This document shows positions 15,843-64,000 of a stretch of DNA of 64,000 bases, piece after piece. The translations under genes and the position numbers were made by a program. The DNA comes from Cenococcum geophilum (taxonomy: Eukaryota). The stretch lies in assembly GCA_050273025.1 (NCBI GenBank), contig CP158635.1, positions 9,114,001 to 9,178,000 of the forward strand, written 5' to 3'. Position 1 is the stretch's first letter. Every line of letters begins with the position of its first letter. The notes under the pieces are model-generated. The model was given only the letters and a program-made list of their open reading frames with translations, searched no databases and was not told where the DNA came from.

Positions 15843-16803
15843 TTTATTTATTCTAGTAAGGCAATTACTAAGTTGCTTGCTGTATAATATTTTATACGCA
15901 TATTAGTAAAGCCTTAGCTACTAGGCGGCTAGAAGCGAAATTATCCTATAAACTATATTAGAGTATAGTAGTAAGTGTTTTACTTAATTTAGATATCTAG
16001 CTTTCTCTAGAGTTTAAGTTTAAGTTATTAGTATTTAAATTACAGGAAGTAGTTTCTTAAAATTATCTAAAAGGCGCTAAACTAACTAGGCGCTTAATAT
16101 TTAGCTAACTACACTTCTAGTCTAAAATGGTATTAAAATAACTTAATTTAAAAACAAGGTTTTCATTTTTATCTTATAGCCTGCTTTAACGGTTACTTAT
16201 TAGCTCTTACTCTTATTAGTTATAACTTTAATTTAATTACTAACCCCTATTAGTCGCCTTTCATGCTTATAATATACCTACTAGAATCTTATTGTTGGGG
16301 AAGACGCAGCCGGATTTAGAGGCTCCTCCCCCCCGTTTTAGGAGGCTGTTTCTCCTCACTTAGACCTATGTTTGTCGCCGCTTTTACAACATACTAAGCA
16401 TGCTAAGGACGGTAGGGTCTTCCTCATTTACCTACTAAACCTAGAAGCTCCCCAAACGTTATTTAAGAAGCCATAGACGTCCGCCGCCTACCTTTATCCT
16501 CATCCTTCGCCAAAAGCACTACCCTTATATAATAAAACCTCCCTTCTATACTACGCTCCTTTAACCCTTTTCCCACAGTAGCTACGTATGCATTTTCCTC
16601 TGTTATTATGTTGTTTACTTTTAATACTTAATTTCTAGGTTTCTACCTATGGGATTTTTTTGCCCTATCCCGCTCTTAAAAACGCCGATCTCCTATAAAG
16701 CCTTTTTTAGCGTTCCTATTAACAGCAGTCGCTCTTAAGCTAGCTTCTACGTGTAAGTAACTGGCAGCTATTAAAGCACTAAAATACTACGCGTTTAACC
16801 ACC

Positions 16804-19324
16804 ATGCCCTTTTAACGTAAGAAATGGCGAAATATAGATCTAGCCTTTAGCTTAGACTCCGAACTAGGCAAGCCGTTTTATTTTAAGCTAGCTTCGGACT
16901 TAGATTTAAGCTCTAACTCTAGAGCTAAGGAAGACGCCAATTCTAAGGGGGAATATTTGTAGTAGAGGATTGCGTATTATAAGGACTAAGAAAGGGCGAA
17001 GTTAAAACGGAAGCCCTAGTCTACTTTTTTTATTAAGCGTAAGTTTTAAAATTAGGAAAAGTTCGTTTATATTTAAACCAAAATTCACCTTATAATACTA
17101 ATGATTTATATTTAGGTTCTGCCTAAAAGTTAAGTCTAACCTAACTAAGGCCCTTCGTTAGTGTGTAGCTAATACGTTTAAAACATACCTTAAATAGCGC
17201 GTAAAGAATTCTTAAATTAAGAAGAAAAGCACGATCTAGTTATACTAGAGATAAATGCTATGCAAATTTATAGATGTAGTAGGCTATAGTATAAACAATA
17301 GCGCAGAACTTAATATACAAGATATAGGTAATCTTTAATTTTTTTAAAAAAATCCTGGCTGATTTATTATAGTGGATTCTAACCTACTTAACGCCAATAT
17401 ATAAGCTGGACACGTTAGAGAAAGAAAAGGATGCTATATATATGCAGGACTTATATACAATTATTAATGCCTATTAGATAATGGACGTAAAGCCTTACTA
17501 TAGTCGTTTTTAAGTATAGATAGGAGTAATCCTCCTCCTCTTTAGTGCCATGGCAATAAGACCCTAAGCTCTTATTAAAAGTTTAAGTGTAAAAGGCTCT
17601 AACAAAGCGCTTTTATATAAATATATTACAATCCTAAAAGTTCGCGATATAAAAAACTTTAATTAAACTATAACTGTTGCCCTTGTAAGTCTTATATATA
17701 TTAAGAATTCTAGAGGTATAGGTAGACGGTATATAGCGACGTTAATTAAAGACGGCGCGAATAGTGCTAATATACCTATAGTAAGAGGTTTATTTTCTGT
17801 CTTAAAAGTATCCTAGCTTTTTATATCCTATTCTATCTTATAAGCCTTACTATCGCGGATAATATATTTTAACGCCGTTACACTTCACCGGAAGAGATTT
17901 TTAGACTTAAAATCCTAGCAAAAAAAGAGAGTCTTAAAGTGAAGTTTAAGAAGGAGATAGAGAAACGACCTATTTTTTAAGATATTAAGATAATGGCTAG
18001 TTATAGGGGAGTGTTGAACACTAAAGCATTCCCTTACTAGAAATGCCGCGATTACTATATATAGTTAGGCCAAGTAGCCGGGTTTAAAAAATTGCTTAAA
18101 CTTTACTAGCTGCAATAAGCGTCTAAAAGGAAATTAAATAGTAAGTGTCTAATTTGATATAAGTGTATATATTAACTAAGTTTTCTAGGTACCCTTACTC
18201 TAAAAGAGCGAAATTAGATAATAGGTTATTATAGTAATACCTACTAACGGTTTTATTTACCTAATTTAATTAAGCGCGATTTCTAGTCGATTTACTTTAA
18301 GACTCTATTATAGGACGACCTTATTTAATATGCCGTATAGATAGGGATCTTAAGGGATAAGCGGGCCCCTATAGGTCTAACTAATAAGCAAAAGCTTAAA
18401 TTCTAGCTAGAACTTAATTAACGCCCTAATATTTTATAGCTTTATAAGAAACGAGAGCAATATAAGTAAAAGATTAGGAGCTAGGGATATTACCCTATTA
18501 ATACCGCAAAGGGAATAAAACTATATAACTATTATAACAAAGCTAGATATAAACTTTATAGTATTATAAACGTCCTACGTAAACAAAAAGAGGACTAGGT
18601 TATTCTTAATTTTTATAACGCCATCGACAATTATAATATTAAAAGATAGCTTAGTGGTAGCGTTAGGACGGAAATTCCCACCTATTTAGCTGTATAGTAT
18701 AAATTTTATAAATATATTGCTATTGCCAAACTACTATCTTAGCTGCTAAATAAGCTTGAAGAAGGACACGCTATAAAACTCCATATAAAGTTTATCCACA
18801 ATCTCGTTAAGTATTATAATTAATAAGAGAGTCAGCAGAATGGGATCCTAAGTAAGGCTATTAGATTTTAACTTAGGTCTAAAGTAGACTAAAGTATAAT
18901 AGGCGTAAAAAGAGGTGCAAGTAACGCTAATACTGGCACCTATTAGTAGGTAAAGCGGTAGAAAGAATAGATTAGCTTAGACTCGCCTTTTTAAGAAAAC
19001 CTAGATAAGACGCGGAGCGCGGTCCCGATTAAGGAAGAGGGTATTAAGATAATACAGCTGCCGTATCCTATAACGTTTATTAATCTTATTTATCTTATCT
19101 ACATCGGCAATAACTAACTCTTAACGCTAAGGCAAACCCGCCTATTTGCGAAGAAGGATATACTATAGAAGTATTTTAATAATTACGTTATAGAAGGAGT
19201 GTTTAGGCAGGGGTTCTACTATAAGCATCCTTATTGCTTAGAGTAGATTAAAGAACTTAAGCATTTTAAAAATTACGCAACCTTTATGTATAGCGTATAG
19301 CATCCAATTAAAAGGCACTACTAA
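16804..19324 (+). pseudogene. DUF3435 tyrosine recombinase (Starship captain), RIP-inactivated, with introns
   Basis: Acidic N-terminus; 'KLDTLEKEKDAIYMQDL...RF*V*IGVILLLFSAMAIRP*ALI' (R of T.RP at ~17560); 'LGQVAGFKKLLKLY*LQ*A' (YxLRR); 'ERN*IIGY' (MGH); 'RFYLP...RDF*SIY'; C-terminal Cys/His finger region 'HFKNYATFMY'. Introns at ~17729-17780 and 18141-18188. Confidence 0.88.
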
Positions 19325-19656
19325 GTAAGTTACCTTGCCTATGCGAGAATCCTATGCTAACCCTCTAGTACCTATAAAAAGGTATATAACTGGTAAATTT
19401 AGAACTATACGTTCCTTATATATAAGACCTTTTCCTAGTTATTACGCGCTTATCTTATTATTCTTTACCACTTTTTATTTTATTTTAGTCTATTATTATC
19501 TAATCCTATTCTAGTATTTAGTAAAATAGATGCAATGACTAGAATTTTGTAATTCGTTTAGGGGGGCGAGGGGTAATAAATAAGGGTGAGGGTAAGGGTG
19601 AGGGTAAGGTAAAGGATGAGATAAAGGGTAAGGTAAGAGGTGAGGTAAGGGGAGGC

Positions 19657-20817
19657 TAATAGGAGATGGATAATATAGTTGTATAATATCTAACGGACCG
19701 ACTATAAACGAGATATATATTCGAATTTCTTAAATCAACCCAAACGGAGAAAGGAATAGAAGTATTGTATAATAACTTCCTACCTAAGCCGATCTCCTAA
19801 GCTATGTATCTTTACTTATATATAATGCTCGCACCTTTTATAATAAAGTATATAAGGGTAATTAGGGTCGGATAGATAACTACTGTCCTTAATATAACAT
19901 ATAAACTCGGCTCTATAACTAATATTATAATAGGTCCTAGTTGTGCAGAGGGTATTAAGACAGTTATTAATGTTTTCGCTTTTACGCTTAGCCGCGGTAT
20001 ACCTTACCTTGGCGGATTAAAGCAGTAATTCTATTTATTGTAGCTGAGACTAGATAGCTTAAAGTTTTAGTATAAAATTTTCCTCTATATCCTTAGATGC
20101 GGTAATCGCTGTCCGTATAATGCTAATGGCAAAATCGCCTATAACGTCCAGCTCTATAAAGTCCTTAAGTTTAATAAGCTCTTTAATATACTCAGCCGCT
20201 ATTAAGGTAATTATATTATGCAATACTAAGTCACCTATTAGGCTAAAGACATCCTTAATAATATTAGGAAACCCATCTACGGACTAGCTAGTTCCTAGAA
20301 TATATTAGATTTTTATATTCGCAAGCTCTTTTAGCTATAGTATATTATAGTAATCGGCAATTATATTAATATAGACGTAACGAAGTATAATATAGGCCGT
20401 CGTTAGCCGTATTATTATATCTTTATTATCGCCACCGCTATTATTTAGTTTAGATAGCAATAAGGCATCGGCGTTGTTAATATTAGATCCTTACTCCTCC
20501 TTACCATTCTTATAGTCCCTCTTATATATAAATTAAATTATTTTCTTAATAGTGCCGGAATCAAACTCGTTGATATTTATAATATTAGTCGCTACCTCCT
20601 ACCCATTAGTTGGTTAGTTAGGGTCAATTCCACTAGACGTTTAATTAGCTTTTATCTAAAAGCCTCTATTATAGGCAGCTGCAAGTATAGGAGATTAGGT
20701 ACATATAATTACTTTATAGACTTTAAACTTTAGCCCCTAGTATATAAGTTTTAAGTTGCTATATTTCTCGCTATCTATAAGCTGCGCTAAGCTAAATAGA
20801 GCACTCTTAGATAGCAT
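19657..20817 (-). pseudogene. BTB/POZ domain protein
   Basis: ATG at 20817: 'MLSKSALFSLAQLIDSEKYSNLKLIY*GLKFKVYKVIICT*SPILAAAY' (= YSDL...FKVHKAIVCTQSPV), then 'EATNIININEFDSGTIKKII*FIY'. Confidence 0.85.
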
Positions 20818-21899
20818 GTTTCTCTAGTTTTAACTACGCCTTAAGCAATATTTAAGGGAGTAATTTAGTGTTAAATAGGACGATTAAGAATAAGAACTCT
20901 GCTTTATTAAACATAGCTCTAGAGCCTCTATATATATATTAAGAAGTCGTTATTAGCTTCGTCTAATCTGCAACGGATTTAGCTAGTTAGTTAGAGCTTT
21001 AAACGTTAGTCACTTAACTAAGGACTAGTGTAACTTCTAAAGTTCTAGGAAGGGTAAGTGGTGGGGTTAGCCGCAGCGCCTAAAAGCAGTTAGGTTATAT
21101 AATAAAGGCTTAGTTAAAGGACGTGTTCCTATAGCTTAGGTTAAGGCTCTATACTCCTTTAAGCCACATTAAGTAAAGTTAAATAGTATTATGTTCCTGC
21201 GTACCGGCCTACTAATTACACTATTCCTACGCCTCTAAGAGCGGTTTCCCGGCCAACCTTCTTATTATCGGGTAGTTGAAGTATACTTTTTAGATAAGGG
21301 GCACTAACTTAATTCTTAGTTAATTACTCTATAAGTCTTAGAGATAGTATATTCCCTACTAATAACTTACTAACTAAGTAAGTAGATTAATAAAACTAAC
21401 CTTGCGAACACACTACTATATAAAGCTTAGTAGATAAAAATATATTTCCTAAATTAATAGGATCTAGTACAAAGAGTAATTATATAATGCTTTAGCATAT
21501 TTAAGATACCTTAGAATTTTATAACTTTACTATTATTAGTATTAACAAAATGTCTTTTAGGAAATAATTCACCTTCCTCTATTATTAGTGAAGGGAACTC
21601 TCCTAGTACGTTAGATATTTATTTAATATTTTACGCATATTATAGAGGGCTTATACGTACTAAAATTAGCTAAAGGCACTAAAGAACAATGCTAAGAAGT
21701 AACGGAAGAGGTATATAATGCAGTATTGTATATCTGTAGAGGTATAAAACCTAAAGGAGTCTAACCATGCTCTATATTACTATAGTGCTTATCCCTTACG
21801 TGGCCGCACCCGTATAGCGATATTTTAGTCTTTTTAAAGAACCCTAAATATAAGTAAATCTAGCACTAGGAGATGCTTTTAAGGAGAAAATTTAGTTCT

Positions 21900-22750
21900 A
21901 GGTAATGCTGTTATTTAGGTAAGGCCGCTAAGGAGTTTAAGGAAAATAGGATAGTGGATAAACCTAAGGATAGGGAGTGGAACTAAACTCCTAGCATCGA
22001 TTTATCCTCTTTATTTCCCGTTATTCTCCTATCTATCTCTTTTACTAGTTTTTTAGCCTCCTTTAATTCTTTTAGGAGAGTCGCCTAGTTACGCCTCTAC
22101 TTATAAACGTATTATAAACCCGCTAGTAAGCATCTTAGGCAAGGTTTGTCGCTATCGCTATTATACTTAAGTTTTTTTAAGGAGCATTGAAAGTATAATC
22201 TTATTCTCCTTAGCACTAAAATTTGTAAGTCTTAACTATAGCTAGCAACAGTCCTTTTTTTATAACGCCTCTTATGTAACTTAAGGAGGTCACCTTAAAA
22301 GAAAGCTCTAGAGCATTTGTCGTAATAGTAAGTCGGCTCTTTAGCGTCTATAAGAGTTAGGAATATACACTACGGTTAAATAGAGTAGAGACTTACGGGA
22401 TTTTTAGTGTTAGTTTAAGTGCCCTACTTAAACAAAACTTCTTATATAATTGTTATAGTTATACACGTAAATTTTCTAATTTAGTAGCTGCCCCTCTATA
22501 AGTGGACTATTAACTCTAATAACTATAGGGCAGAGTATCCTTTTACTTACCTATTTCCATTCTATTGTAGCAGTTAGTGGTTAAAAGTAGACGGCTAAGT
22601 TTATATGCGATATTAAAGAGGTTTAAAATATAGAAAGATGTAGAATTAAAGATATAGACTACTAAGAGGAGGCGGGATATAAAGTTTCCACGTATTAACG
22701 TGGCGCTAATACTAATATTATATATAGAATGATCTGGCGTATTAATGATT
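21900..22750 (-). pseudogene. C2H2 zinc-finger protein (at least two fingers)
   Basis: 'VYNYNNYIRSFV*VGHLN*H*KS' (~22400-22470) and 'YYYDKCSRAFF*GDLLKLHKRRY' (~22260-22340), separated by an intron; both revert to CxxC...HxxxH. Confidence 0.75.
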
Positions 22751-23333
22751 AATATAATAATATAAGCATTCCTAATATAGAACCCTAGTTTCTATTTAAA
22801 GCGTAAGGCGTCCTACTATTTTGCGTTCTAGATAGTAGAAGAGTAGAATATAAAAAGTTAAAAAGATAGACTGTTAGGGAGCGGACTGCTAAGCTAAACC
22901 TTTAGAAGTTTTAAAGAGTTTTATATTTAGGAAACATTATATAGGTAAAAGGAGTAAGTGGGGAAAAAGGGCTATATTAATTACCTATAATGCTTATAGG
23001 GAATACGCGCTATACTTATTGCTATTATTTAGAGTATATATACTCCTAAATTGTTTCGGTTTTAAGATGGCTTATTTTCTTAAATGGGTAATAAGCTTTG
23101 GGGATGAATCCAATTAGCTCCTACTAAGCCTATTAAACGATTATATCTAAGGCTTATAGAATGTAGGGAGTCGCAGAATAAGGCTTGGGTTATCTAACCT
23201 TAAGGATCTCTCGCGATTTAGCTTAGATTATATCCGGGATAATATTAAGAGGAAAGAAAGTAATATTAGCTTCTTAATTAGCTCTTATCTAATTTATAGC
23301 AGAACCCTAAATAGTTTAGTAGCTTATAGTGCC

Positions 23334-23459
23334 TACTAAATTCTAAATACCTTTGCACCGCAACTACTAAATTATAGACGCCTTCGCATTATAACCACTA
23401 AATTATAGACACTTTTGTACCGGGACTATTAAATTATAGACGCTTTATACTATAAGCAC
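23334..23459 (-). repeat. 31-bp tandem repeat, ~4 copies
   Basis: Unit like ACTAAATTATAGACGCCTTTGCACCGCAACT repeats with 31-bp period; inverted counterpart at 27380-27500. Confidence 0.8.
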
Positions 23460-24572
23460 TAGTATAAGGAGCCCCATATTAAGATCTAATCTAATTATAG
23501 TATGCGTACTAGATTTAACAGTATTAGTAATAGATCCCGGTAGCTTAAAATAGTAGAGGGGATGTACTTAATACTTATCTAGTATTTATCTAGAGGGCCC
23601 TATATAGTGTTGCGTGATATAAGCTCTTATATAAATACTTTATTAATTTCTAGCACTCTTTAGTAGTAATAGGGATCTTAGGTACCCTACTTTTCTAACG
23701 CTTAAAGCGACATACGTTCTTTTAATTAGTGATCCTTTTTATTTAAAAATAAAATGCTCAATTTTATTGCTGTTATTTAATATCCTTTAATATCTATTCC
23801 CTTTTATTTGCTACTAGCAATGTATAATTATACCTAGGTTTACTATAAGTATACTTATCTCCGCTATACCGTAAGAGCTTAGTATACGAAATACTAGAAG
23901 ACGCAGAAAAGATATCTAGTAAACGTTGTTATAATGTAAGAGCAAACACCTAAGCCATTAATGCATAACTAATTTTCTATTATAGTAAATACAGGCTTAA
24001 TAAAAACTGCGGTGCGCCTCTATAGGTCTATATAGAGGCCTAAAAAGCTTATATAAGAATTTCTTCTAGGCGACTATAAAGACATATTAAACTAAGAGGC
24101 TTACTTAAATATGCATAAGAAGGTAAAGGAGGAAATTATTTAATAAACGCGAAGGGGGCTGCGTATTGCTGGTAAAGGGCATATATAACTCTCTTCTTTA
24201 TAGATGTACTATAAATAAGTATTTAGGGTAGAGAAACCAAACTATCTTTAATAAAGTATTTGATGTGTTCTAAACTTAGCAATAAGTCTAGTCATTATAT
24301 ATATCCGGCTCGTGGCTTAGTTATAGCCAGAATTAGGCGGTCAGCGCTGCTAAATTCCGCCTAACTTAACGCACTAAGCCTTAGCCCCTAGACGGTAAGA
24401 CCTTAGACGTAGGCTAGGTAAACCTTGGCATATACACTTATAATATTCTACTAACCGCCCGCCTGTTAAACATATCCGATAGCTTTTAAATAGAGATAAT
24501 AGTAAGTAGCTCTTCGTACGCTACAAACGGCATATATACTAACATTTATAAAGAAACTAATGTATATAATAA

Positions 24573-25760
24573 ATACATCCGTTAAAACACCTCCACCTTA
24601 CCCCCGACGTGCTAAACGTCAATATCTATTAAAGAGAAAAGATGCCGACCTATAATACTGTTTATTTATATTGTATAAAGATCTTACTACGCGAGTTAGT
24701 GTTTTAGAGGAGATGTTTAGGCTATTACCCATAATATAAGTGGACGAAGCCGCCTTTACTAAGGCCGTTACCGGTTATATTCTCGCCCTTAAGCATTATA
24801 TAGGAGTTAGATATTTTCGACCCTTAAAGTTAAAAGGAGGGTGGGATTATCCTATTAAAGATTATAATAAAATTTACCAGCGTCTAGATTTGTATTATAA
24901 GTATATTAAAACTATAAAGGGGTTTGGATATAAGATTCTAAAGCGTTATTTTAACTAGGATACGTGCCTACCGTATAGCCACCAATTTAACTCTTCTGCT
25001 GGTCTTCTTTAATATAAGCGGAAAGCTTATAGTATGGAAGCTTTATCACGGACTTAAATATTTATACTATTTATAACGTATATTAAGAAGAATATGTTAT
25101 AAGATTATATTATTTTAGAAATGCTTATAAGATATAAACTCGCAATTAGCGGAGGCTAGTAATTAAATAAAATAAACGGAAGACTTTACTGTTTATATAC
25201 CTTATACAAACTCGCTAAAACCTAGCTTTAATAGCGGTGGCTAAGGAGAATTTATTCCTCTAAGCGCTGAAATGGGCCCCTTAACTTTAAAAGCCGAAGA
25301 CAGCACTTAGATGCCTATCCCAACGTCTTTTATAAGAGGAGACTTTAAATTCACTATAGCACTAAGTACTACGCTATGTGCAATTAAACCTAAAGCATAA
25401 GGGGGTAGAAGGGTGTTTAAGTTCTTTATAGCACCGAGCGCTACTAAAAAGGGTTTTGGATTTACTATAGATCTATACACCAATTTTTCTATTAAACCTA
25501 AAGCTAGAAGGGACTTTAGGTTAGGGTTACCAAGTACCACTACGGTTAGGTTTAGTAGAAATAGTGCTAAAGGGGATTTTAGATATATGGCTCCGTAAAT
25601 AGAGTTTCCGGCAGGTAAACTAGGGGGTTATAGTAAGGGGATTTTTAAATTTAGGATGGAACCTTGCGCCGCTAACGTTCCCTTTAATAATCTTATGTTT
25701 GGAGCGGGCTAGGGTTAATAGTTATAGCTTTAGGACTCTTAATAAAGAGATTAGATAAAA
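24573..25760 (+). pseudogene. Hypothetical protein relic
   Basis: Protein-like frame 'IHPLKHLHLTPDVLNVNIY...' running into ORF-track 24740-24958; family not recognised. Confidence 0.35.
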
Positions 25761-27379
25761 TATATCTTAAATAACGCAAATAAGTTATATCTTGCTACTT
25801 ATTAAATAGGCTTATTCCTATTCTACATATAATAAACCACTATTACTTTCCCTTCTCTAATAGTAGGAGTTGGACTTAATTGTCTTAGCTACCCATTTTA
25901 AATAATACTAATTTTAATAAGAGCTGGCTTAATTAGTAGGCGCGATTACTTATATATCCCCTCCGCATGCTTTAATAATAGATATGCTATTAGTCTCTTC
26001 CTTTTAAAGGGCTAGGTTGTACTATACAATCTATCTCTAATTAATGTCTTCTCTAAGGTAATAGCAACTAATAGTAATAATATTGTTGTTATTAGCTAGC
26101 TGCTTCTAATCCGGTAATTATCTAATTAAAAATAGGGCATATTAAGGGAAATCGTGTTCTTTAACATATAAGACTTAGAAACTACTATCCCTAGTAGAAC
26201 TAATAAGGGCATTTATGAACTTTAAAGGTATTAGTAAGTAGAGCTTTTTTTCCTTAAAGGAAAGAAAACTGGCATAACCTTATTGTCATTAATTTGCGGC
26301 CACTTTAAAATGGCATTGGTTGCGCCTTTAAGGACTATAATGCTTTAATCTTATAGAAGCTATAAGATAAAACGGGTAGAGTTCTTATTGGATAGGTCTA
26401 GTAACTACTCCTTCTAATATCTATAGACTTTAAGGGTAAGAGAACTTATATCTTTAACTTAGAAAAAATCTTAACCTTTATATAACGCAATTTAAATTTA
26501 GGGCTAGTTACCTTACTAATGCTAAAAGAACTGGAAAACTGAACATGTAAATAAGAGCAAAATTTAATTAAGAAACAGCCTATACCCTAATAAAGCTTTT
26601 ATTTATCTAACAATAAGGCGCTCCCTATATACTATATATTTAGCAATATACTCTTAATTCTTATTACTATATGCTAAGTATATAACTACCTAGCGCATTA
26701 TATCCAACTACTAGAAAACACTCGCGGCGGAGTTATTTATTACCGTTTAGAATAGCATTTTCTAGTAATTATCTAGCTATATATATATTACTGACCTTAT
26801 TTTAGTTTTATAGTATATCTAGTTAATTTAGGGTGTTAGTATAATGGAGGCTTAATAACTAAAAAGTACTAAATCTATTATTGCGTCTACTTTATATATA
26901 TACACTTAAAACGTAAGTTAGCCTAATAGTATACCTAAAGAGGCGGACAGCTCTTATACGTATAAGGTAACTATTAATAGAACTTAGCCTTTAAGCCTTA
27001 CGCCCGACTTATAAGAAGGATTAAAGGTTAAGTAGGACTCGTTATATACCGATTTAACTGCTTAGGAGTAAGGCAGCGGCTCGTTTTTATATAACCTTTC
27101 CTACTTAATAGCAGCTATCTAACCGTGTCTTTAACTAGTATTAATTAGTATTTCTTAGACATTATAGAGTTTTATCCTAGGCGCCGGATTTAGTTATAAC
27201 TTAGTATTACTTTAATATTTACTTACAGATTTTAATCCTTATTTATAATTTCTGGCTTATTTAATCTTTAATTAAGGGATAATAACTATGTTAAAGCTAT
27301 AGATTTGGATTCGAATGTGCTTAGCTAAAAAAGGCGGTAATTACTACGTTGGCCGTAAGTAGCGGCTCTAATTTTTAGC

Positions 27380-30116: not shown

Positions 30117-32536
30117 ATGCAGCTATTTAAGACTATTAACTATATTTATTCCGTCCTTCTGGTTGTTTCTTTCCTTTACTATACCGTGCAATCTATAAGA
30201 TTGTAGTTATTACTAGTTATATATAGGAAGCGGCTAACTTAGGTATTATAGATGGTGGTAGAAATTATAGCCAGCTATATAAGTATCTAAATTCTACAAC
30301 TATAAGCTTATCTAATAATAGGTAAGGTACAGAAGGTATTCTCCAGGCTATATACTAGCAAATTACTCTACACGCATGTATATAACGTCCCTATATAAAA
30401 TTATTGTTCTATACTAACTAGATGTTTAGGTCTTTATAGAAAGTTCGATACTTATATAGAGTACTATTTAGATCCTTTTTTAACTCAAATTAATTCACCT
30501 AAGGTATTTTTATTTTAGCTCTTGCCTAATTACCTATACCCTTAAAGTCGCCCGTTTTATCGTCCTCGCCATTAACTAATTAATTAACGTCTACTAAGTT
30601 ATACGCCTTATAATACCGGTTTTGGGGATGTTTCTGTTGGTTAGGCTCTCTATCCTATATAGAATACCTTACCTAGCGAGCGAAGTGGAACCGCTACTTA
30701 AGTAGCCCTAAGCTAGTAATATTAAAAGCTGGCGGGATTGTATAGAGGATCTCTTAGTAGTTATACCGTACCTATAGCCAAAGGACTTAAAAATATAGTT
30801 GTTGCTTTGCCTAGTAGGTGTCCTATAAGTCTTAGCTAGGCTACTAGCGATATTGCCATTAATATAAACGGGTGCACTTATAAATGCTACTATAGATAGA
30901 TCTAGTTTATATTTTTGTCCTTTCTAAGTAGCATTAACTAACCGCTAAAGGTTCTATTCCTATTCTAGAATTTGTCTTATAGGTAATAACGCTACTTACC
31001 TTTATTTTAAACCGGTTTAACTTATATATAAAGGGGCACGTTATAGAATATTTAATACGTAACCTAAAAGAGCACGCCTTAAGACACGTTATAATACTCT
31101 TAATGGACTTCTATAGCAATAACAGCTCTAAGGAAGTCTTAGAGGTTATAGTCTTAGAAGAACGGTATATCCATCTTGCGGACAGTCTAATCCTTAATTT
31201 AATACCTTCTGCAATTAACATTATTACCTTTATAGTTTATTTCTCGCACTTTATTGATGCATATATAGGACTTATTATAATTAACGTAATCGTTATTTAT
31301 ATTTGGACTAAGCTCGTTAAGAATCCTAAGCTTTTTTAAATGTATTAAGATATAGTACGAATAGGTATAAGGAAAGCTAGATTAAGTACGACATAGTTAT
31401 ATACTAGGATCTAGTAAAAATAGCTAATTATTAAGATTAGGAGTAGCACGGATATTCCTCTATATTAATAGATAGTAATAAACTAGGATTATGGATAAAG
31501 TGTTTATAACTTTTTACTAGTCTATTAGGAGAGGGATTAAAAGCAATTAGCCTAGCAATTTTAGTACTAGTCTTACTTCTTTACCTTACGTAAAATACCG
31601 CAAGTGTGGGCGGCTTATTTATTTTAATTAGTTCCTAGCTAAACACATTTATGTTTATAGGCTATCTTATATAAACGTATAATATGCTAATAGGTTGCCT
31701 TATTGCAGAAGAATACTTTTCCAAACTTCTTTAAACTAAGCTATCTATCGTTAATAAAGAAGGAGTAATATACCTTAAGGTTACCGCCGGTCGCGTTAAA
31801 TTTAATAATATCTTATTTTCTTACGCCGACGAGGAGCCAACGGTAAAGAAGATTAGTTTTATAGTTAAGGGCGGAAAGACTATTACGCTTATTAGATTAA
31901 CCGGGAGTAGTAAGTCTACACTTCTTAATCTCCTAAAGCGGTTTATTAACCCTAGTAAAGGAAGCATTAAAATTAATGGCTAAAATATTAGTAATGTTAT
32001 ACTAAGAAGTCTATGAGAAGATATAGTAGTTATACCCTAAAATCTTAAAGTATTAAATAAGTTAATTAGGGAAATCGTATTGTATGGGCTCTATACTAAT
32101 AATACTAAAATTACGGAAAGCTATAAAGCCGCTTCTATATATAAACGGATTATATATTATAATACTAGATATAACATAGTGGTTAGGGAAGGAGGTATTA
32201 AACTTTTAGGCGGTAAGCGTTAACGCATTACTATCGCAAGGGCCTTTTTTAAAAATTTAAAGATTTGGCTTCTTAACGAAGCTACGTCTGCTATAGATAA
32301 TATAACGGAGAAATTAATTTACGAATCGCTTAAAAGTTGGGGGAAAGGTTAAACAATTTTAACTATTACTTATCGTCTTAGTATTGTTAAGGGTGCTAAT
32401 AAAATTATTTTCTTAGAAAACGGAGAGATAAAAGAAAGGGGAAGTTATACTAAGTTGCTTAACTAACGTAGATTATACTACGAAATGTAGATAGTAATAA
32501 ATAATGTGGACGAAATAGAGGGGGTTAGAAGCTAGT
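30117..32536 (+). pseudogene. Half-size ABCB transporter, HMT1 (heavy-metal tolerance)-like
   Basis: Hydrophobic N-terminus; 'IPYL*PKD'; transmembrane segment in ORF 31103-31339; Walker A 'RLTGSSKST' (~31895), signature 'LLGGKR*RITIARA' (~32203), Walker B 'WLLNEATSAID', 'ITYRLS' H-loop. Confidence 0.88.
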
Positions 32537-33944: not shown

Positions 33945-34490
33945 TTCTATAAGCTAGGAGGTTGTAGGAGCTAGGGGCTTATAGGAGCTAGGGAATCCTA
34001 GAAAGTAGGTAATTATATAAGTATAGTGGTTTAATTTAGCGCCCTCTAATTAATACCTAGCGTGTAAATAGGGTATTAATGGGTTTAATAACTTTCGTGG
34101 CTTTGATCCTATAAGCTAGGCGATCGTATAAGCTAGATGCTTGTGGGAGCTGGCCGATCCTACGAGCTAGGTAATTATGTAAGCATAGTGCTCGTGGGAG
34201 CTAGGCAATCCTGTAAGCTAGGTAATTATGCAAGCTAGGTAACCGTGTAAGTATAGTGCTTGTAAAAGTTGAGCAATCCTATGAGCTAGGTAATCGTATA
34301 AGCTAGGTGATTGTGCAAACTGGGTAATTGTGCGAGCTAGGTAATCGTGCGAGCTAGGCAATTATGCGAACTAGGTAATTATGCGAGCTAGGTAATTATA
34401 TAAGTAGAGTAATTATGTAAGCAGAGTAATTATATAAGTAGGGTAATCTAACCTAGCGCCCTCTATTAACGCCTAGTATATAAATAGGAA
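33945..34490. repeat. 17-bp minisatellite (GAGCTAGGTAATCGTGC-like), more than 20 degenerate copies
   Basis: Periodic GAGCTAGG[T/C]AAT; embedded duplicated block TAGCGCCCTCTA.TTAA..CCTAG....TAAATAGG at ~34037 and ~34454. Confidence 0.85.
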
Positions 34491-41249: not shown

Positions 41250-41880
41250 ATTAATCCCCTACTTTAGCTAATCCCCTACTTAAATAAGTCCCCTACTTAA
41301 ATAAATCCCCTATAGGATCTACTCCCCTACGCTAACAAATCCCCTACGCTAACAAATCCCCTGCGCTAATGAATCCCCTATAGGTGCTAATGCCTATGTA
41401 TTCCACCGCCCTATAGGAACTAATCCCCTATAGCTTATATTCCTATACGGCTTTTGCTCCCCTATAGGGGCTAATAGCTACGTTTTCCTCTCCTATACGG
41501 GAACTAATACCCTATAGCTTTCGTTCTCTATTCCTAGATCTATAAATACTATTAGCTATATCTTTTACTCCCCTACGGAACAAATCCCCTATAAATTCCG
41601 TTCCTATATATAGTAACTATATCTTCTACTACCCTGTAAGAACTATACCCTATAGCTCCTACTTCCGTATAGCTTTTACTCCCCTATAAGAACTAATAGT
41701 AATTTCTTCCACTCCCCTACGGAAACTAATCTTTTATAGCTTGCGGTTCTCTACAGGGGTTAATACCTACTTTCTCTATCACCTTATAGCTTTTAATTCC
41801 TTATGGGAACTAATACTTATATCTTCTACTCCCCTATAGGAACTAATGCCCTATAGCTTCTATTCTCCTATTCCCGGATC
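41250..41880. repeat. Compound minisatellite built on AATCCCCTA / CTCCCCTAYGGGAACTAAT
   Basis: 17-bp units at 41250-41385 grade into longer degenerate units up to ~41880. Confidence 0.8.
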
Positions 41881-42049: not shown

Positions 42050-44860
42050 TTAACTAGTCTAGCGTCTTTAAAGTTACTTTTAAAATCTTAGTTTAATATA
42101 AGAGCCTTACCCAAATACTTATATATAAGTTTCTCCCCCTTACTTTTAGCTAAGCCGTAACCAATCCGTATAGTGTTCTTAATCTAATATAGTATATTAG
42201 TACTAGCCTTAAAACTCTCTCTTAAATATTACCTTACCTATCTTCCGTTTAATTAATGGTTTAAAAGCCGCTCTATATCCTTTTTAGAGATATTAGCAGC
42301 AGTATTAGCTTACTTTAGGAAGGTCTTCTATACCTACTCTTTTACTAGTCTTTTTAGCTTGTTATATTTAAGTGTAAGATATATTCTACTCTATATAGCT
42401 ACATTAAATATAGTAATCCTATTTATTATAAGAAACATAATACCTTAAAAATACTCTATCTATCGCAGGAAGATGGATACTAGGCTGTTATATTAGACAT
42501 TATTTAAAGTTCTTTCTATAAGAAAGACATCGGCCTTATCTAGAAGAAAGACAGCGCTCTAGCGGTAAACGTTCTTAACTATTAGAGCTAGGTTTTATTC
42601 TAAATGGGCTAGATCCGTATTAAGGTCTCCTATATAAGCCTTATTATAGTTAGACTAGTATATAAATACACTTATAAAGGGAAATAAACTATATAAAGGG
42701 GTCTCCTCTAAGATTTGGTAAGTGCTTTAGCTATTAATATCTTTCCCACCCTAGGTGGGCTACTAAAATGGTTAGCCTTTAAAATAGCCAATGCCCCACC
42801 AGAAAACCTACTGTAGTAAGAAAACTAGGCCTTTCCCCTTCCCTTTAATTATATTATTAAACTTTAATTTCCCGGACTTAGACTAGTAGCTCTTTATAAG
42901 TCCTTAAAGTACCATTTTTTTATCCTCTTTAATTACGAGTAACTTAAATGCTAAGGCATTCTATTTAATGTCCTTAATGTTAGCAACGGCAAATTTACCT
43001 ATTAGTGCTTATATTAATATATATAATTTGCTAACTCTAGAAAAAGTATATAAAAAGCTTAACCCTATTTTTTATCTACCAAACTAAAGGCTAGGGCTAT
43101 TAGTGGATAGATTAGGTACTTATTATCTTCTATCTCCTTAAGAACTAAACCTTAATTCTTTATATCCCCTTACTAATTAGTCCCTTAATTAATTACGCTT
43201 ATTCCATACGCATTTATAGCGATTAGTTACTTACTATAGTTAGGATTCTAACAATAAAATACTATTACGTCCACTATAATACGGCCGCTTATAGAAAATC
43301 TTAACGGGCTATCTTTAGTCCAGAAAAATGCGATCCCTTTATATTTACGGCGGTTAATATCTCTTAAAGATATAAACTTCTAGCCATTACTAATAAGATC
43401 CTTCTTTACGCTCTAGCGGAAATACTTTAAGAGATATAATTTTTATAGTTAAACGGAATTCCGGAATAGAGAGGGTGGTTTTTACCTCGCTAAACGCCTT
43501 CCCATTATAGCCGAAATAGTGACAGTTAAGTTCAAAGCTCTTTTCGCTAAAAAGTAAGGTTTTAAAGTTGCCTAAATTATATATAAGGCATCTTGGTTAA
43601 TCCGAGCCTTTATAAATTATAAGAATATATATATTTGGTTTAAATAAGGCCTAAAGGAGATCGAAATTAATTTCGCTATAGTATAGAAGCGGTAGGAGAC
43701 TATTAGTTATAGGCGCGAAATGGTCTTTAAGGAATCTTAGTAACCCCTAAAGGTGCTTAGCGCCGATTAAGTCGGGAGAAAGACTTTCCTAGTATGTTTT
43801 TAACTGGGGTAGGAAATTAAATATAAGGTTTATAGGAATCTAGAAGTTAAATTAGAATAAGCTACATCTATAAAAAGGTCTACTTACTATAGGCTTATCT
43901 TTCTAAAGGGAGATAGCTTGTATACCGTTTAGCACCACCTATAAGGCGTCTCTTACTTCTCCTAAATTTATGCTTAAGTACGTACTGTAGTCTTTCTTAT
44001 CCTTTTTTAGCTTAAAGTCAGCATCTAAGTTAATATATTTAAAGGCACCTAAGAAATAGACTAAATTTCTTCTAAAGAATATAGATATACTGATTATATA
44101 TATTACGCTTACTTAATATATCCGGCGAAGTCTCTATAGTCTTATACTAGCAGTTTTATTTATCCTAGCTGTAGTAAACGCTATATTAGCGTATTTCTAA
44201 GTATATTTTAGGGATTTCGCGAATATATATCTTATTTAACACCTTAACTTCAACCTTAGAACCTCTTACTTTGGGTATTTTTTTAACCCCTAAACTCGTA
44301 GGGGGAGGTAGAGGAGGTGGAGAAGGTAGAGGAGGTTAGGCCGCTTAGACTATCTTTAATATAGCTATAAGCACTTTAACTATAAGATACTGCGCTAACT
44401 GCCTATAATGCACATGCGTTCGGCTTAAGCTACTAGGGGGGGTATTATAAAATAGTAAAGGCGCTAGCGTAACGGGCTTGGATGTAACTGGCATTGTTAC
44501 TCTATAAAGCTTTAGTAACGTAATACTAATTTAAAGAAGGAGCTAAGTAGAAAGAGGAGCTAGATAGTATTATTTTTTGGGCCGGATTTGCCCTTTTTTT
44601 ATACAATATAAGCTGTGCTATAGGTATATCTACACCCCTTTTCTAGTAATAGGCTACCTTCCCCAATTAATCCTAGCAAACTTTAGTTAAGATATATTAA
44701 TATTGTCTTCGTTATAGTAAATAAAGCCATAGTATACGTGCTTGCTATACCTATAGAAATAGTCCCCTAGCTTATATACGGGATTTTAACTCTAGCACTA
44801 GAGTGAGCTTAAAAAAAGACATTGCCTAAAGTATAGAAGTGCTCTAATTGATATACAGGA
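42050..44860 (-). pseudogene. Fungal AAA+ ATPase with long N-terminal extension
   Basis: 'GKGKGLVFLL' [intron] 'SPPRVGKILIAKAL' (Walker A GPPGVGKT, ~42725-42765), 'SAVFLLDKADVFLIER' (Walker B), 'FLR*IEYFKGIMFLIINR'. The 5' end is approximate. Confidence 0.88.
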
Positions 44861-52900: not shown

Positions 52901-52992
52901 AAATTCCTAAAACGCTAATAATACCCTATATAATAGGCTGCTAGCGCCTACCTAGCTAGTTAAGCTAAACTAGTAATAAGATCTAATCCTAT

Positions 52993-53949: not shown

Positions 53950-54777
53950 TCCTCTTAAAACAAGTTCTATTTACCCCTATATTACATCTACCTAGACTAT
54001 AAGAAGCCCTAGAAATACCCCCATATATCTACTATAGCCGTTTAGGTAGATTTTTACGTTATTCGCAATTAGGGGGGGAATAGTAGATAATGTTGGCGTT
54101 AATCGCCAAACTATATCTCTTATATTTGTTAGCTAAGTTAATATAATTTAAGTTATTGAGTTCTATTTAATTTAAGGAAGAGGGTATACTATTATAGAGG
54201 ATAATAGGGCTTAACTTCCTAAAGTAAACCCTAAAGCGTTTTTTATAAATTTCTCCTTAGCTTTACTAGTATTTAAGCCAAACACTATACTAGTATAGTA
54301 ATAGGATTTCTTAATAGTTTAAGCACAGTAGAACTATTACGGGGCGTGTGTTTTTACCTTATAATTAGCTAGGAATTTCCCGCTTATATTTACTAGATTA
54401 AATTAATTAAAACCTATATTAAACTAAGTATTATTTTAACAAAGGTCTCTAAAACGGCTTTGCGTTAAGGTATAGTTAAGGTTAAGAAAATTAAATCTTA
54501 ATATTGTCCCAACCGTAGCGTTAAGCGTATTTAAGGAAAAAGATAAATTCCTATAGTCTCCAATAGTTATATAAGTAGTAGGTTTTATAAGTAATAGAAG
54601 TTCACTAGCTAAGGAACTCTATATACCTGCTATAATTCCTAAAGATCGCCTGCCTATTATACTGCTTATTTAATAGATTAATAAGTTATAAAATAATACT
54701 GCTTTAGCACCCTTTAGTAAAATAGTATACTAAATTAAAGTGGCGATAATAAGAGTGGAAATAATAAATAGCTGCAT
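53950..54777 (-). pseudogene. Secreted cupredoxin-fold (extracellular serine-rich) protein
   Basis: ATG at 54777 'MQLFIISTLIIATLI' signal peptide; 'LSFSLNTLNATVGTILRFNFLNLNYTLTQSRFRDLC', 'P**FYCA*T..SYYYTSIVFGLN' (= NHTLTQS..PC; PQWFYCAQ...HC..GMVF.LN). Confidence 0.8.
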
Positions 54778-55645
54778 AATACTTTAATTTGATAGGTAGA
54801 TAATAGCTTTAATAGATATTTATATAAGATATTAGAATAAAATCCTTAAATAAGTAATCTAGTAACGTATTTAATAAAGTATAATTTAAAAAATAGAAAT
54901 ATTAAAAATAAAACTTTTTTAACTATAAATAGGAATAGTAGTTATAGAGGTTCTATAAAAGATCTTAACTCGCCCTTAATTATCTAAACTAACCTCCTTT
55001 TAACTATATAATTTAAGCTACGCTTAATTATCTACTTTTAATTATTTAACCTAACTTTAATATTACTAATTAGCACGGAAGAATACTTATAATAGTAGAC
55101 GTTTAGACTAATAGATTAGCGATTAAGTATTAGAGTTTATTATAAATTAATAATATGCTATACCTAAGTCTCTTACCTACTAACTTTAAGCTATTAAGCC
55201 TAATATCTTTAAACCTAGCGCTATTAGGAACGAACTTAAAATTAAAATTAGAGAATACTGCTAAGCCGTTTAGAATATATTTGGATTATTAGCGACCTAA
55301 AGCTTTAGCGGTAAATAATAACTCTAAGGAGGAGGAGGAGATAGAATAAGTTATCTCGGATAATAAAATAGAGAAAAATGCCTTAGATGATAAAGATAAT
55401 ATTAAAATAAAAAAGGTTAGGGTTTAGGAATTAACTAAAAAATACTACTCCCCAGACGAGGATAGGGTAGCACTTTAGCTTAAAGGGGTAGTGTAAATAT
55501 CATAAGCTTAAGAAAAAGGACTTAGCGAGGTACTAGAAGAGATAAGAAAAGTATATTATAAAGCCTTTCCCTTTATTAGACGGTGGTAGGATATAGGTAT
55601 TCCGTTAACCTATAAAAACGTAATAAATAAACTAGATATAGAAAT

Positions 55646-55852
55646 TCTTGGTCACATAGGGTGACTTACCAATAACGACTACTTAAGTAGGTTACAGTGA
55701 TGTTGGTTAATAAAGCTTATTAATTAGAATGAGGGAGGGCAAGGAACTTAAGGCTCCTCGCTACGCTAGTACCGTGGCGACACGTAATGGCAACTTGCTA
55801 TTACGTGACGGCAGTTTACCGTACGTGGCGGCAACTTACCTTATTCCTAACA
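55646..55852 (-). repeat. Copia 3' LTR
   Basis: Direct repeat of 61588-61794. Confidence 0.93.
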
Positions 55853-58800
55853 CTAGCAACTCTTCTTTTATGGTTGCCATCTATATATAAATACTGCTTA
55901 ACTATTATAACAAATATAAACCCTCCTCGCCTACTATTACCATTATAGTATAAGTCTTACTGTCCTAAAATTTGCCTCTTAGCACGCAGTGCTTTCTTGT
56001 TAAGGAGTTATAGGTAGATATTATGTTAGGGCCGTTAGGGCCGCTAAGGCGCTAGCTATAAGCGAGCTAATAGCGATTTTCTATCCTAGGGATAGAAAAT
56101 TCTAATTGGCTGGTTTAAGTTAGGGTCTATAAAATCTAACTAATTAAACAACTTTAACCGCCGGTTAAAGTTCCTAGATATCTTAAGGCCTTATATAACT
56201 AAGATATTTCTAGGGACTCCCTTTTTACCTAACCTTTAACTCGTATATGTAGAGTATTTATATTAATAAACGTCTCTAGTGCCTTATTTGGGTTCGCCTT
56301 TATTATTACATCTACCGGGTTATCTTGGCCATTAATCTATTAAATCTTAAAGAGTTTTTAACATTTATAGGATTAATAAAGTGCCATAATGTTAATTATA
56401 AGGCGCTTCTCCTTTATAGTACTAAGCTTAACTAAATACTTATAGAGGGAGTATAAGTTAGTATATATAATTATAGGGATAACGGAAAGTTCGAGTTAAT
56501 CTATAATTATCTTTAGGGTAGTTCCAATTGCAATTACTATGTTAACTCTGCTAACTATTCTATATATCTCTAATACTAAACCGCTTTAAGTAACGCGCTT
56601 ACTCTTAGTTAAGCTCTAATAAATAAGATTACCATAGATTATAAAGTTATTCTCTCCGGTAGATTCGTTTGCGATAATAATCTTATATCCTAGCTAGGAG
56701 CTAAAATCTTTATTATTTATAAACGATTTATTAATAAATATAAAGAGCTTAGCGGTGGGAAGATTAATAGGCACGTAGAGTAGTCCCTAATTAAGATAGT
56801 TTATTTACTAAGAAAGATATTTATTTAGGGCAAGGACGTTATCCTTAGTTAGTTTCTAGTATTAGGTAGCAACAGAGAGATTAAATAAAGCCTTAGGTTA
56901 ATAAATAGAAGTAATATAAGCTCCGTAAGCGCGTTACTCCATATATCCTTATTTTAGAGAGTTAGCGTTAATAACGACAATCTTCCTACCTTAACCCTTT
57001 TGGCGTAAAGCAATAGAATCCTTATTTAGGGAGAGGATGCATTTATTAAAAAATAATAGTGTTCTTAAATTAAGCTTTTCTTTAGCTTTGCTATAAGATT
57101 TGCCTTTACTAGCTTATCTTCTTTAAGAGCTAAGAACTGGTCGTCTCCTAAGATAATTATATTATTAGTTTATATGCTAATAATTCTAAATAGAGTTCCC
57201 GTAGTTATAATAAGGAAGCAGGAATTAAATATAGAAGTAGTTATTAAAAGCTTCTCTTTATAGTGCTTGCTGTAGGTAGCCTACTAATAAATTCCTACCT
57301 CTATAATTCCATATAATGGCTTAAGCATAACTATAATTATATCTTTAGGATACTAGTAGAAAATTTGCTCTGGAAGGTATGCTAATATTAAGCGCTAAAG
57401 GTATATCTCTAATTAGGTGTAGGCTTAAGTAATATCTTATAAATAAACCGCTATTCTATTCTTTATTAAGGAGGGAGCTAGCGCAATAATAACTCGCTAA
57501 CTAGCTTATTAAATTATAGGAGATTACATAAGAATTACCTCCTTACTATTATTGTTGTAGCCTTAGATAATAAGCCTTAATTTCTTAAATAGGGTATCGG
57601 TAGCTTTGCCCTTAATCTTATTAACTATTCTTAACTTAAAGATACGGACTCTATTAAATTTAGTAAGGTTATACTTCTTGAATTTAAAGACTCCTCTTAT
57701 AATAAGACCATTAATCTCCTACTTATTAGATGCTTAAAAAGAAGCTTTTAGAGTTATAATATAACCTTCCTTTTAAAGCTATTTTGTAAGTTTAAAGTTA
57801 GCCTTCTCCTTAGCTGTTATAAAGGCTATTAATAGCTTAACTTTATTCTTAATAGCGGCAACAAATTGCTCTTTAAAATTAATAAGATGTTAGTAATTTT
57901 ATAATCCCTTTAGGCGACCTCTACCGCGTTATAGTTACGGCATATCTATTATAATTATATTAGAATTATGGTCGCCTTCTAGAGTATGTTAATTATGGTT
58001 CTCCTTTAGGGTATCTTTTTTAGTATCCTATAAAGGCTCGGAACTATTATCTTTATAGTAAGGCTTAATAACAGTTAAATGGAATTAAGTGGGTCTATAA
58101 GGCATCTAAATAGTGCAAGTTTAACTATTAATTATAATAAGTTAATGTGGGCCTAACTATCCTCCCTTTTTACGCTATACGTATACCTTAGACTAAAGTA
58201 GTAGATTAAGCGTAGTTAAGGTATTTAGGCTATTTCTTATTCTTAGTGCGTTGTTAACCTAGCGTATAGCGTAGAGACGTCGTACCTCCTTTATTGCCTT
58301 ATAAATAGCCTTAGCTTATTATATAATAGAGGGAGATAGTAGAGAATTGTTAGTTATTTAAGGGTAGGCGCTAAAGACTAGTAATATGGGTATAAGTCTA
58401 TTTGGGCCAGCGGAATTATTAATAGCTTTAATAGCTATTTATAAGGTAAGTTCTTTACTAGCGTCCTTTAGTTTTAAAGAGATAATTTTATATACGCGGC
58501 GTAATGGCGTATAATATCGCTTTACTTTTCTAATACTATTATATGCCTTAATAGGGACTTCCTTAACCTTAATTGCTATTGCCTTTATTTATTATTAAAA
58601 CTCTATAGATAAGAAGTTCTTTCCTATATTATAGATGATTTAATTAGGGGGTCCTAGGTAGATATTAATTTAGTATAGTTAAAGGGTATCCTATACGTTT
58701 CTAGCTAATATATCCTTTAAGAAACGTGCAGCTTAAAAGGAGGTTAAGAAGTTAATAACTTAGAGTACTAGCTTGCCGCTAAGATATATAACGTTAATAA

Positions 58801-61587: not shown

Positions 61588-61794
61588 TATTAGTTATATA
61601 GGGTGACTCACCAATAACGACTACTTAAGTAGGTTATAGTGATGTTAGTTAATAAAGCTTATTAATTAGAATAAGGGAGGGCGAGGAACTTAAGGCTCCT
61701 CGCCACGCTAGTACCGCGGCGACACGTGATGGCAACTTGCCATTACGTGACGGCAGTTTGCCGTACGTGGCGGCAACTTGCCTCATTCCCGACA
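61588..61794 (-). repeat. Copia 5' LTR
   Basis: Direct repeat of 55646-55852; ends ...CCCGACA followed by the TSD. Confidence 0.93.
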
Positions 61795-64000
61795 GAAATT
61801 AAGAAGTTTAACTATAATTATAATTCTAAGCTAGCTTAAGCTATCTTTTTTAAGTTTAATATAAAATACCTAAAAGCTAAAAAGGCTGTAATAAAGAATT
61901 AAATATTAGATGGAGATAATAAGGATATAGTAAAAGAGTTTTACTAGAAAGTCTAGGATAAGTTTATAAAGTTAAAAAAAAATTTAAGCAACTAGACCGC
62001 TATTAGTATTTCCCTTAAAAAATATTAGTAGATAATATTTAAACGTTTAAAAACCAGCTTAATAAAATTAATACCCTTAAGGAAGGAATAGTCGCAAGAG
62101 AGGAAAACATTAAAAAACTTACGGAGGGGTTAGTTGTGTTTATTAAGTTACTAAAGAAAGTAGGTATTAATTATAAGTTAATAACGCTAAGCTATATTAA
62201 GATTAAAATTAAGTAGTTAATTAACGAATCGCCAAATATTACTACTATCTATTTAGCCTATTTAGAGGCCTTAAGAGGCCTAATACTTAAGCAAATGGCG
62301 GTATAGAACGATGTTAGACTATAAGTATAGGAATTTTTTAACTTAGCCTGCTAAAAGAAGTCCGTAGTAAGAGATATATCTCTAAAGAATATAATTAAAG
62401 TAGCTAAATAGAAAAATATCGAGCTTATAAGAGTTAATAAAGAGCTTAACCTAGTTTTAACTAATTATAAAATACTAATTTAATCTATAAAAGAAATTCT
62501 TAGTATTTTAGAGATACCTAATAAGGACATTTAAGAATAGAAGAGAGATGTACTTATACTTAGGATTAAAGCGATATTATTATTTAGAGGTATTAATGGT
62601 ATAAGTACTTAGATTCCTAGAAAGAAGCTAGTACTATTTATAAGCGCTATAGCTTAAGAGAGTTTAAGGCTACTAAACTCTATAAAGGGCGATTTAGCCG
62701 AATAATTAAGCAGCGCTAGCGGTGCTAGGCCATCTATAAAGATTAGCTCTACTACTACTAATGCATTAAGCTCTACTAAACCCTCTATAGGTATTAACCC
62801 CACTTTTAGAGTAAGTAATACTAAAGTAAGCTCTGCTAAACGACCTATAAAAAGTAGCTCCCCTGCTAAAGTAGTAAGTTTAGCTAAAGTCGGCAGTTTT
62901 ACTAATAAAAGTAGTGTTAATAAACCACTATTTATTTTTAAGGAAGAAAGCTTTACTAAATCGCCTATAAAGAGCGGTTTTACTACTAAGAGGGTAAGGT
63001 TTATTAAACTATCTAGACTTAACGGAAAAAAAGCTAAAAGCGTTTTACCTAGATAGGACGCCCTAGAACCCGCTATAAGGCGAATACTTATAGTTCATCC
63101 CCCTATAAGGCTATTAGCTATAGCCTTTATTGCTCCAGAATATTATATACTAGAGGTAATTAAATCTGTAGAGTCTAATATAGATATTAATATAGACCTT
63201 AATAATCTAAACTCTTAATTAAATGACGATTATATTAAGATGCCTTTATATAAGGATAGAAGGACGGAATTTAGTATTCTAGAGGCTATAAGACCTTATA
63301 AAAACAAATAGTAAAGTTACTTTATTATTAATGCGGGCACAGAAAACCATCCGTTTTACTAAGTAATTAGTAGCTACTAACTTGCGCTAAGAGGTGCTGA
63401 TAAGCTCTAAAGTATAGAAGAGAAATACTTTAAGTTTAATAAGAAATGGTATAAGGCGTATATAAATAACGGGAGTAGTAAAAGAAAATGAATTAATATT
63501 ATTAAGAAACTTGGCCCATATATATAGGTCCTATAATTTTATAATAATAGTAAGCGAAAGCTAGATACCTATATTAGAACTAAGGTCTATAAGGAAAAAA
63601 CTAAAAACCCTTACGCTAATAAAATGCCGCTTATTAACTAGTTAATTAAATTAGAAATAGTTAAAATAAGTAATAAGCAATAGGGAGAGGCTTAGGTAGA
63701 GATTTTAACGCAAGCTTATATAAGGAAGAGGAAGGTATTTAAGAAATTAAGGATATACTGGCTGCATCCTAATATAGGGAAGCCACTATCAAAGGAAGAC
63801 AGAATAAACGAGCTATGGCTATTCCTAGATGTAGAAGGGTCTCTAAGTAGTTTAGATAGTGGTAGGTAATAAGCTAGTAAAGAAATTAATATATCTAGTA
63901 TTAAAGTTAATAGCTCTAGCTCTAATTCCGATTCTCTTTACAGCTAAGGCTAGATTAGTACTTTAGTATATTTAGTTATATCTATAATTAATATTTAATA

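Follow-up and report, generated by a model that had tools for sequence, protein, structure and literature searches.

What did the recombinase gene at this locus once move? The window analysed here is a 64,000-nt stretch of the Cenococcum geophilum genome (assembly GCA_050273025.1, contig CP158635.1, positions 9,114,001 to 9,178,000; coordinates below count from its first nucleotide), and it carries the remains of a DUF3435 tyrosine recombinase, the family of the 'captains' that mobilise Starships. The original prediction saw in it one giant Starship, inactivated by repeat-induced point mutation (RIP), that begins at about 16.2 kb with the captain at its 5' end and holds everything to the right, at least 45 kb, as cargo. 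We find instead that positions 16263-21227 probably represent one dead copy of a compact, high-copy, two-gene transposon of about 5 kb, which belongs to the Starship (DUF3435) recombinase lineage and constitutes a natural 'solo captain' element.

The recombinase relic occupies 16804-19324 on the forward strand. Pfam scans of translations in which stops were written as X matched DUF3435 (PF11917) in one of the three forward frames of 16.2-20.2 kb (E 1.1e-25; 90.9 bits, the cut-off being 25.8; positions 101-366 of the 418 in the profile), and no other family was matched there. When 5.8 billion proteins were searched by word index, a single one of the 8000 candidates scored was a match, an intact PF11917 protein of 783 aa (P0020, E 3.3e-150) that its source labels as a hypothetical C2H2-domain protein of the Dothideomycete Zopfia rhizophila. 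The decayed reading frame proposed from 16804 indeed opens with an ATG; in tblastn, P0020 residues 35-783 map onto it as four frame-shifted, exon-like pieces (16849-17064, 17114-17323, 17361-17729 and 17783-19321), with 388 of the 755 aligned residues identical and 51 in-frame stops within the aligned codons. RIP-type changes fit this divergence, as 613 of the 755 codons are derivable from the P0020 residue through C>T/G>A alone, against fractions of 0.55-0.57 for the controls (reverse transitions, transversions). The T.RP, YxLRR and MGH motifs that had been read from the sequence are visible in the translations against P0020 (as AIRP.AL, LY.LQ.AS and, for MGHH, IIGYY), and so is the C-terminal, C2H2-like Cys/His block, which is now mostly Tyr, as expected where RIP converts TGY and CAY codons to TAY. 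With the PF11917 match and the P0020 homology, the identification as a RIP-inactivated DUF3435 captain stands, and the DUF3435 similarity on which it hinged is found once stops are written as X.

There is only one such locus in the window. When P0020 was compared by phmmer with 1.84 billion representative proteins, 1,238 were retrieved at E <=1e-3 and 103 at E <=1e-30; a set of 151 proteins of this family gave no match in the window outside 16.7-19.4 kb, and P0020 is still the closest full-length relative. Many of the family's representatives (P0144, P0147, P0154, P0159, P0160 and others) are short and have their first residue exactly at P0020 residue 424, which suggests that in public data many gene models were started at an internal Met of a truncated or pseudogenised copy.

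The captain belongs to a repeat whose ends can be located by comparing copies. Two further copies were found in metagenome contigs with a 26-nt pattern derived from a CpA/TpG-free stretch at the 5' side, with Y/R at four TpA letters. The first, on an 8.2-kb contig (L001), aligns by blastn from position 1 to 1212 with window positions 17426-16264 at 87% and continues into different sequence. The second, within 20 kb of a 42.8-kb contig (L002), aligns from 5259 to 10291 with window positions 21227-16263 at 89.4% over 5,034 nt (blastn), and the rest of these 20 kb matches the window in one 62-nt piece and nowhere else. The 5' junction is common to three copies and the 3' junction to two, and the flanks differ in every copy. 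The resulting unit, on the forward strand, measures ~4,965 nt (16263-21227) and encodes the recombinase, whose start lies 541 nt inside the left boundary; the captain does lie at the 5' terminus of a mobile unit and faces its interior, as had been claimed. The sequence at the 5' junction begins about (A)TGCTTAT, and GC content rises at ~16250-16290 from values of <=0.27 to the left to 0.40-0.49. Between this junction and the recombinase extends a C-rich, non-coding, less RIP-depleted 5' terminal region (16263-16803, forward strand), with a GC content of 0.37-0.49 against <=0.27 directly to its left. The 3' terminal region (20809-21227, forward strand) ends in ...AATTACACTATTCC, with a junction that is identical in the window and in L002 and is followed by unrelated sequence.

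Over 4,964 nt the window copy and L002 are 90.6% identical; of their 465 differences, 453 are transitions, for which CpA/TpG is the predominant context, followed by CpG. Identity is even along the unit and stays within 0.86-0.93 from the recombinase through the spacer to the second gene described below, and P0020 lands on the identical four pieces in L002.

The second gene lies within the 1.9 kb that follow the recombinase and is convergent with it: a reverse-strand frame (19822-20808 by tblastn) that is conserved in the window and in L002. It is a RIP-inactivated BTB/POZ-domain gene relic, for which the Pfam BTB match falls just below its cut-off of 20.5 bits in each of the two copies, at corresponding positions (16.8 bits, E 0.0082, in the window; 19.8 bits, E 0.00093, in L002). 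Two homologues were matched among 3861 candidates, and both carry PF00651: P0141 (292 aa, E 3.5e-110, 60% identity) and P0142 (316 aa, E 1.5e-94). Against P0141, 275 of 288 codons are RIP-compatible, and the relic contains 11 stops. The unit is made of two convergent genes, recombinase and BTB, both inactivated by RIP. Between them lies a short G-rich tandem repeat with periods of 12/24 nt (19577-19652; Tandem Repeats Finder rows 19581-19609 and 19601-19652, family D1).

The extent of the unit that multiplied is also visible in sequencing data. We placed Logan contigs of four runs (X1, X5, X7 and X22), 150-370 nt in length, on window positions 6001-26000 at a likeness of at least 92%. In X1, contigs without differences to the window (four listed pieces) have a depth of 103-127. 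Summed contig depth in this run, which by the tool's own warning is not a copy number and which leaves paralogues below 92% identity uncounted, amounts to 1,164-2,056 over 13.3-16.0 kb, 8,673-10,949 over the recombinase, 15,000-19,954 over 19.3-21.3 kb and 1,424-4,651 over 21.3-26 kb, corresponding to ~10^2 copy-equivalents for the unit and 10-42 for its flanks. Depth rises near 16.0-16.7 kb and falls at ~21.3 kb, with similar profiles in X1, X5 and X7; at the 3' end in X1, it drops from 16,684 (bin 20675-21341) to 3,081 (bin 21342-22008). The X1 contigs differ from the window by 641 transitions and 41 transversions. Taken together, the depth step in three isolates and the boundaries in the copies indicate that what multiplied is a unit of ~5 kb and not one of 45 kb or more. 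The marks of a RIPed repeat are all found in it, namely TpA excess, CpA/TpG depletion, divergence between copies that is nearly transition-only, and multi-copy depth.

This abundance may not extend to all isolates. In X22 there is almost no depth over 13.3-21 kb, and that of the captain unit is 300-500-fold below X1, each relative to its own single-copy level, which could mean that the sequence is absent or has diverged by more than 8%. Among runs with the same species label, the share of sampled words of the stretch ranges from 0.57 down to 0.00, and it is 0.26 and 0.15 in two root metagenomes. The small word shares of runs X11-X24 are not taken here as a sign of habitat or of absence. Such differences between isolates (X21-X24 versus X1-X10) could result from lineage-specific bursts or from deep divergence within the species label.

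How, then, does a single giant Starship starting at ~16.2 kb fare? It has in its favour a captain that lies on the forward strand near the compositional step at ~16.25 kb and points to the right, the presence of genuine relics downstream that do not derive from transposable elements (TEs) and are RIPed like the captain, and the documented RIP of whole duplicated Starships (PMC10104507). These arguments meet the copy evidence, where L002 has captain and BTB gene and homology ends at 21227, L001 shares the 5' break only, the captain recurs without the downstream genes, and depth drops 5-10-fold at ~21.3 kb in three isolates; the DNA at 21.2-64 kb can hardly be the captain's payload, as had been inferred. 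Nor does RIP set off 16.2-64 kb from the remainder. The window is AT-rich throughout (GC 0.245-0.372 across 2-kb windows), only one open reading frame of at least 100 aa is present in its full 64 kb, and RIP indices are equally strong in 32 of 32 2-kb bins (TA/AT 1.46-1.86; (CA+TG)/(AC+GT) 0.21-0.57). RIP thus affects the window from end to end, the 16 kb left of the captain included, and marks out no element. The terminal sequences of the unit are not repeated elsewhere in the window. Six-frame Pfam scans of 19-64 kb, again with stops written as X and of low sensitivity on RIPed DNA, brought up no DUF3723, FRE, PLP or NLR domain. The giant-Starship model is largely refuted, and we regard it as very improbable.

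The relics to the right of the unit have to be explained otherwise. The same scans recovered three non-TE relics and no more, although 'about a dozen' had been counted from the sequence: an ABC_tran nucleotide-binding domain (31846-32289, forward strand, E 6.8e-15), a Pkinase_fungal domain (PF17667; Pfam match at 39276-40517 within a full-length relic at 38565-40823, or 38426-40823 at its widest, forward strand, E 1.8e-69) and a DUF7025 domain (43411-43680, reverse strand, E 4.1e-15). The BTB gene had been detected by other means, and more relics may exist. With the Pfam threshold relaxed to an E-value of 2, 10 of the 18 frames gave one additional sub-threshold row (CysR_MRC2_N, E 0.16), and short-frame scans showed neither an ABC_membrane domain upstream of the ABC nucleotide-binding domain nor an AAA domain beside DUF7025, where an AAA-ATPase-like stretch can be seen by eye at ~42.3-43.0 kb on the reverse strand. 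Empty scans are weak evidence on this DNA, since a copia-like pol frame readable by eye on the reverse strand (~56.8-60.1 kb) likewise matched no Pfam family. A stop-density scan for coding frames was non-discriminating, with ~130 segments that included antisense frames, and was dropped. The kinase relic is intron-less, 0.58 identical and 0.87 RIP-compatible with its homologue P0021, and carries 44 stops; its family counts 751 homologues at E <=1e-5 among the 8000 candidates scored, and a genome often has several of them. One of these (P0067), from the genus of P0020, lies on a 25-kb contig and P0020 on a separate 933-kb contig, so that synteny informed neither way.

The ABC-transporter, fungal-kinase and DUF7025 relics are best read as flanking DNA outside the unit, in the form of separate RIPed repeats or duplicated genes, rather than as payload. 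A different account, which would be compatible with a compact element at 16263-21227, has this element nested in a larger RIPed mobile or duplicated block, for instance a Starship with its captain beyond the window, to which the ABC, kinase and AAA relics would belong. Non-TE genes that are RIPed across tens of kb, which calls for duplication or closeness to repeats, speak for such a block, as does an LTR (long terminal repeat) retroelement that appears to be likewise nested at 55.6-61.8 kb. The window, on the other side, offers no second DUF3435 locus and no boundaries or repeats that would delimit the block, and the kinase, coming from a multi-copy family, could have been RIPed in its own right. 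We consider this arrangement unlikely, if slightly less so than the one discussed next.

In that remaining alternative, the 5-kb unit would be the conserved captain-proximal module of larger Starships with differing cargo haplotypes, and 21227 the point at which these diverge instead of a terminus. Elements of the same family can have little or no cargo in common, as reported in PMC11162782, the 3' break is set by two copies, and depth on the right side (12-42 copy-equivalents) still exceeds single copy. Yet ~10^2 copy-equivalents would imply tens of giants, where 0-4 copies are given for the Starship Voyager (PMC9156397), and the depth drop is abrupt, falling inside one 667-nt bin in three isolates. 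The flank depths are alike as well (left 10-19, right 12-28), as expected for insertion into one moderately repeated sequence. On this balance we think a captain-proximal module improbable and retain the compact two-gene transposon.

Several observations weigh against the latter all the same. For 16263-21227 no terminal inverted repeat (TIR), direct repeat or empty site was found: across three 5' and two 3' junctions, the unit ends gave AT-rich, chance-like matches and nothing convincing, and RIP may have erased such repeats, and no joint spanning the unit occurs among the 15 of 46 joints listed for the Logan contigs, the uncovered parts carrying no evidence. With two copies defining the 3' end, the break could mark diverging cargo haplotypes and not a true terminus. 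Both additional copies are metagenomic and could be paralogues within one species, in which case they attest repetition and not necessarily recent mobility. An intact recombinase copy at the level of the element was not seen, P0020 being only 0.81 RIP-compatible and from another genus, and the assignment to the Starship lineage comes from Pfam and homology rather than from the published 11-family tree. The caveats on summed depth given above count on the same side.

Like the Starships Hephaestus and Voyager, the unit belongs to the DUF3435 family by Pfam and has its recombinase near the 5' end, pointing inward, and it shares with them the vulnerability to RIP once duplicated that was published for Hephaestus (PMC10104507); a RIP-killed captain is in itself not new, as RIP of duplicated Starships is described in that same source. 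In Aspergillus fumigatus, the reported Starship cargo also includes a BTB-domain gene (10.1101/2024.06.28.601215). The unit differs in size and number, with ~5 kb and one accessory gene against 15,020 bp to ~700 kb for published Starships (PMC11162782, PMC12134995), and with ~10^2 copy-equivalents against the few copies of Voyager. It lacks the large cargo of a Starship, having ~4,965 nt common to its copies and one gene besides the captain.

Comparable as well are the 'solo' recombinases of Gluck-Thaler & Vogan (2024), which, like the recombinase of the unit, are DUF3435 genes without a large cargo element (PMC11162782). That study sets 559 bounded Starships against 10,212 'solo' recombinases, and its authors leave it undecided whether solo captains mobilise anything besides themselves; the starfish pipeline used there drops predicted elements below 15 kb, and the smallest Starship reported has 15,020 bp. 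For Starship Family 11, PMC11162782 and PMC12134995 give no known cargo element. Unlike published 'solo' recombinases, the one here is accompanied by a constant partner gene and lies in an element whose ends are defined by several copies.

Cryptons are DNA elements of a few kb. Like CryptonF elements, the unit is a small element around a tyrosine recombinase, with no TIRs and no target-site duplication seen. Absence of TIRs is described for Cryptons (PMC13465315), but the recombinase of the unit is DUF3435, a family separated from Crypton recombinases in published trees (PMC9156397), and no Crypton-type domain was matched by Pfam in the forward frames of 16.2-20.2 kb. That a Starship recombinase can move a small unit follows from miniHφ, an engineered minimal Hephaestus for which 132 insertions were mapped (PMC10104507); miniHφ is artificial, whereas the dead unit in the window arose naturally and exists in many copies. 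In the literature passages searched, we met no account of a DUF3435 element that is natural, compact and high-copy, though one may already have been published.

By analogy with Hephaestus, for which site-specific tyrosine recombination has been demonstrated experimentally, the recombinase would have recognised both ends of the unit, excised it and re-integrated it elsewhere. As a presumably autonomous element, the lineage would move little beyond itself and may in this way have multiplied to roughly 10^2 copies. Duplication would then have exposed every copy to RIP, because it made each of them a target, and both genes would have been filled with stops.

Other features of the window concern its repetitive background. 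A direct repeat of ~200 nt is present at 55648-55855 and 61590-61823 (89-92%) and again at 4-197; the first two look like the LTR pair of a nested ~6.2-kb retroelement, within which the pol-like frame mentioned above is located, and the third like another LTR at the start of the window. To the right of the second LTR, a long forward frame with few stops extends over 61923-63962 (stop share of 0.008 in the best 120-codon window), and an antisense frame at 62021-63280 includes one 120-codon window free of stops; the region matches no Pfam family. To the left of the captain unit, a very-high-copy repeat covers 4258-9093 and 166-1268 and includes inverted copies (166-1268 versus 5821-4720 at 87%; 4287-4717 versus 9089-8670 at 79%). 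Its summed contig depth over 6.0-9.3 kb in X1 reaches 0.54-1.26 million, compared with ~110 for single-copy pieces, and the L001 copy of the captain unit adjoins the same repeat as that found at 8.5-9.1 kb in the window. At 34106-34448 and 41252-41871 there are degenerate tandem arrays whose periods are 17, 34, 51 and 68 nt. Rfam (E <=1) and tRNA scans had no match, hence no 5S or tRNA target signature.

For the biology of Starships, a 5-kb unit with constant ends and ~10^2 copy-equivalents would exemplify a captain that moves (almost) only itself, in a recombinase lineage that would behave like an ordinary high-copy transposon. It is conceivable, although we put this forward tentatively and as somewhat short of probable, that some DUF3435 lineages are compact, Crypton-sized autonomous transposons of ~5 kb, composed of a recombinase and a BTB partner and able to burst to ~10^2 copies in a genome. 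Starship surveys would overlook them, because predictions below 15 kb are discarded (PMC11162782). The locus also cautions that RIPed relics beside a captain should not be taken for payload unless boundaries from copy to copy or from isolate to isolate delimit them. If compact DUF3435 transposons of this kind are real, they would explain part of the excess of 'solo' captains, which amount to ~18 per bounded element, and Starships would either descend from the compact form or have given rise to it by streamlining. The constant BTB partner could then serve as a required cofactor or act in host interaction, and the two ends and two genes of the unit would provide a minimal natural substrate for captain recognition.

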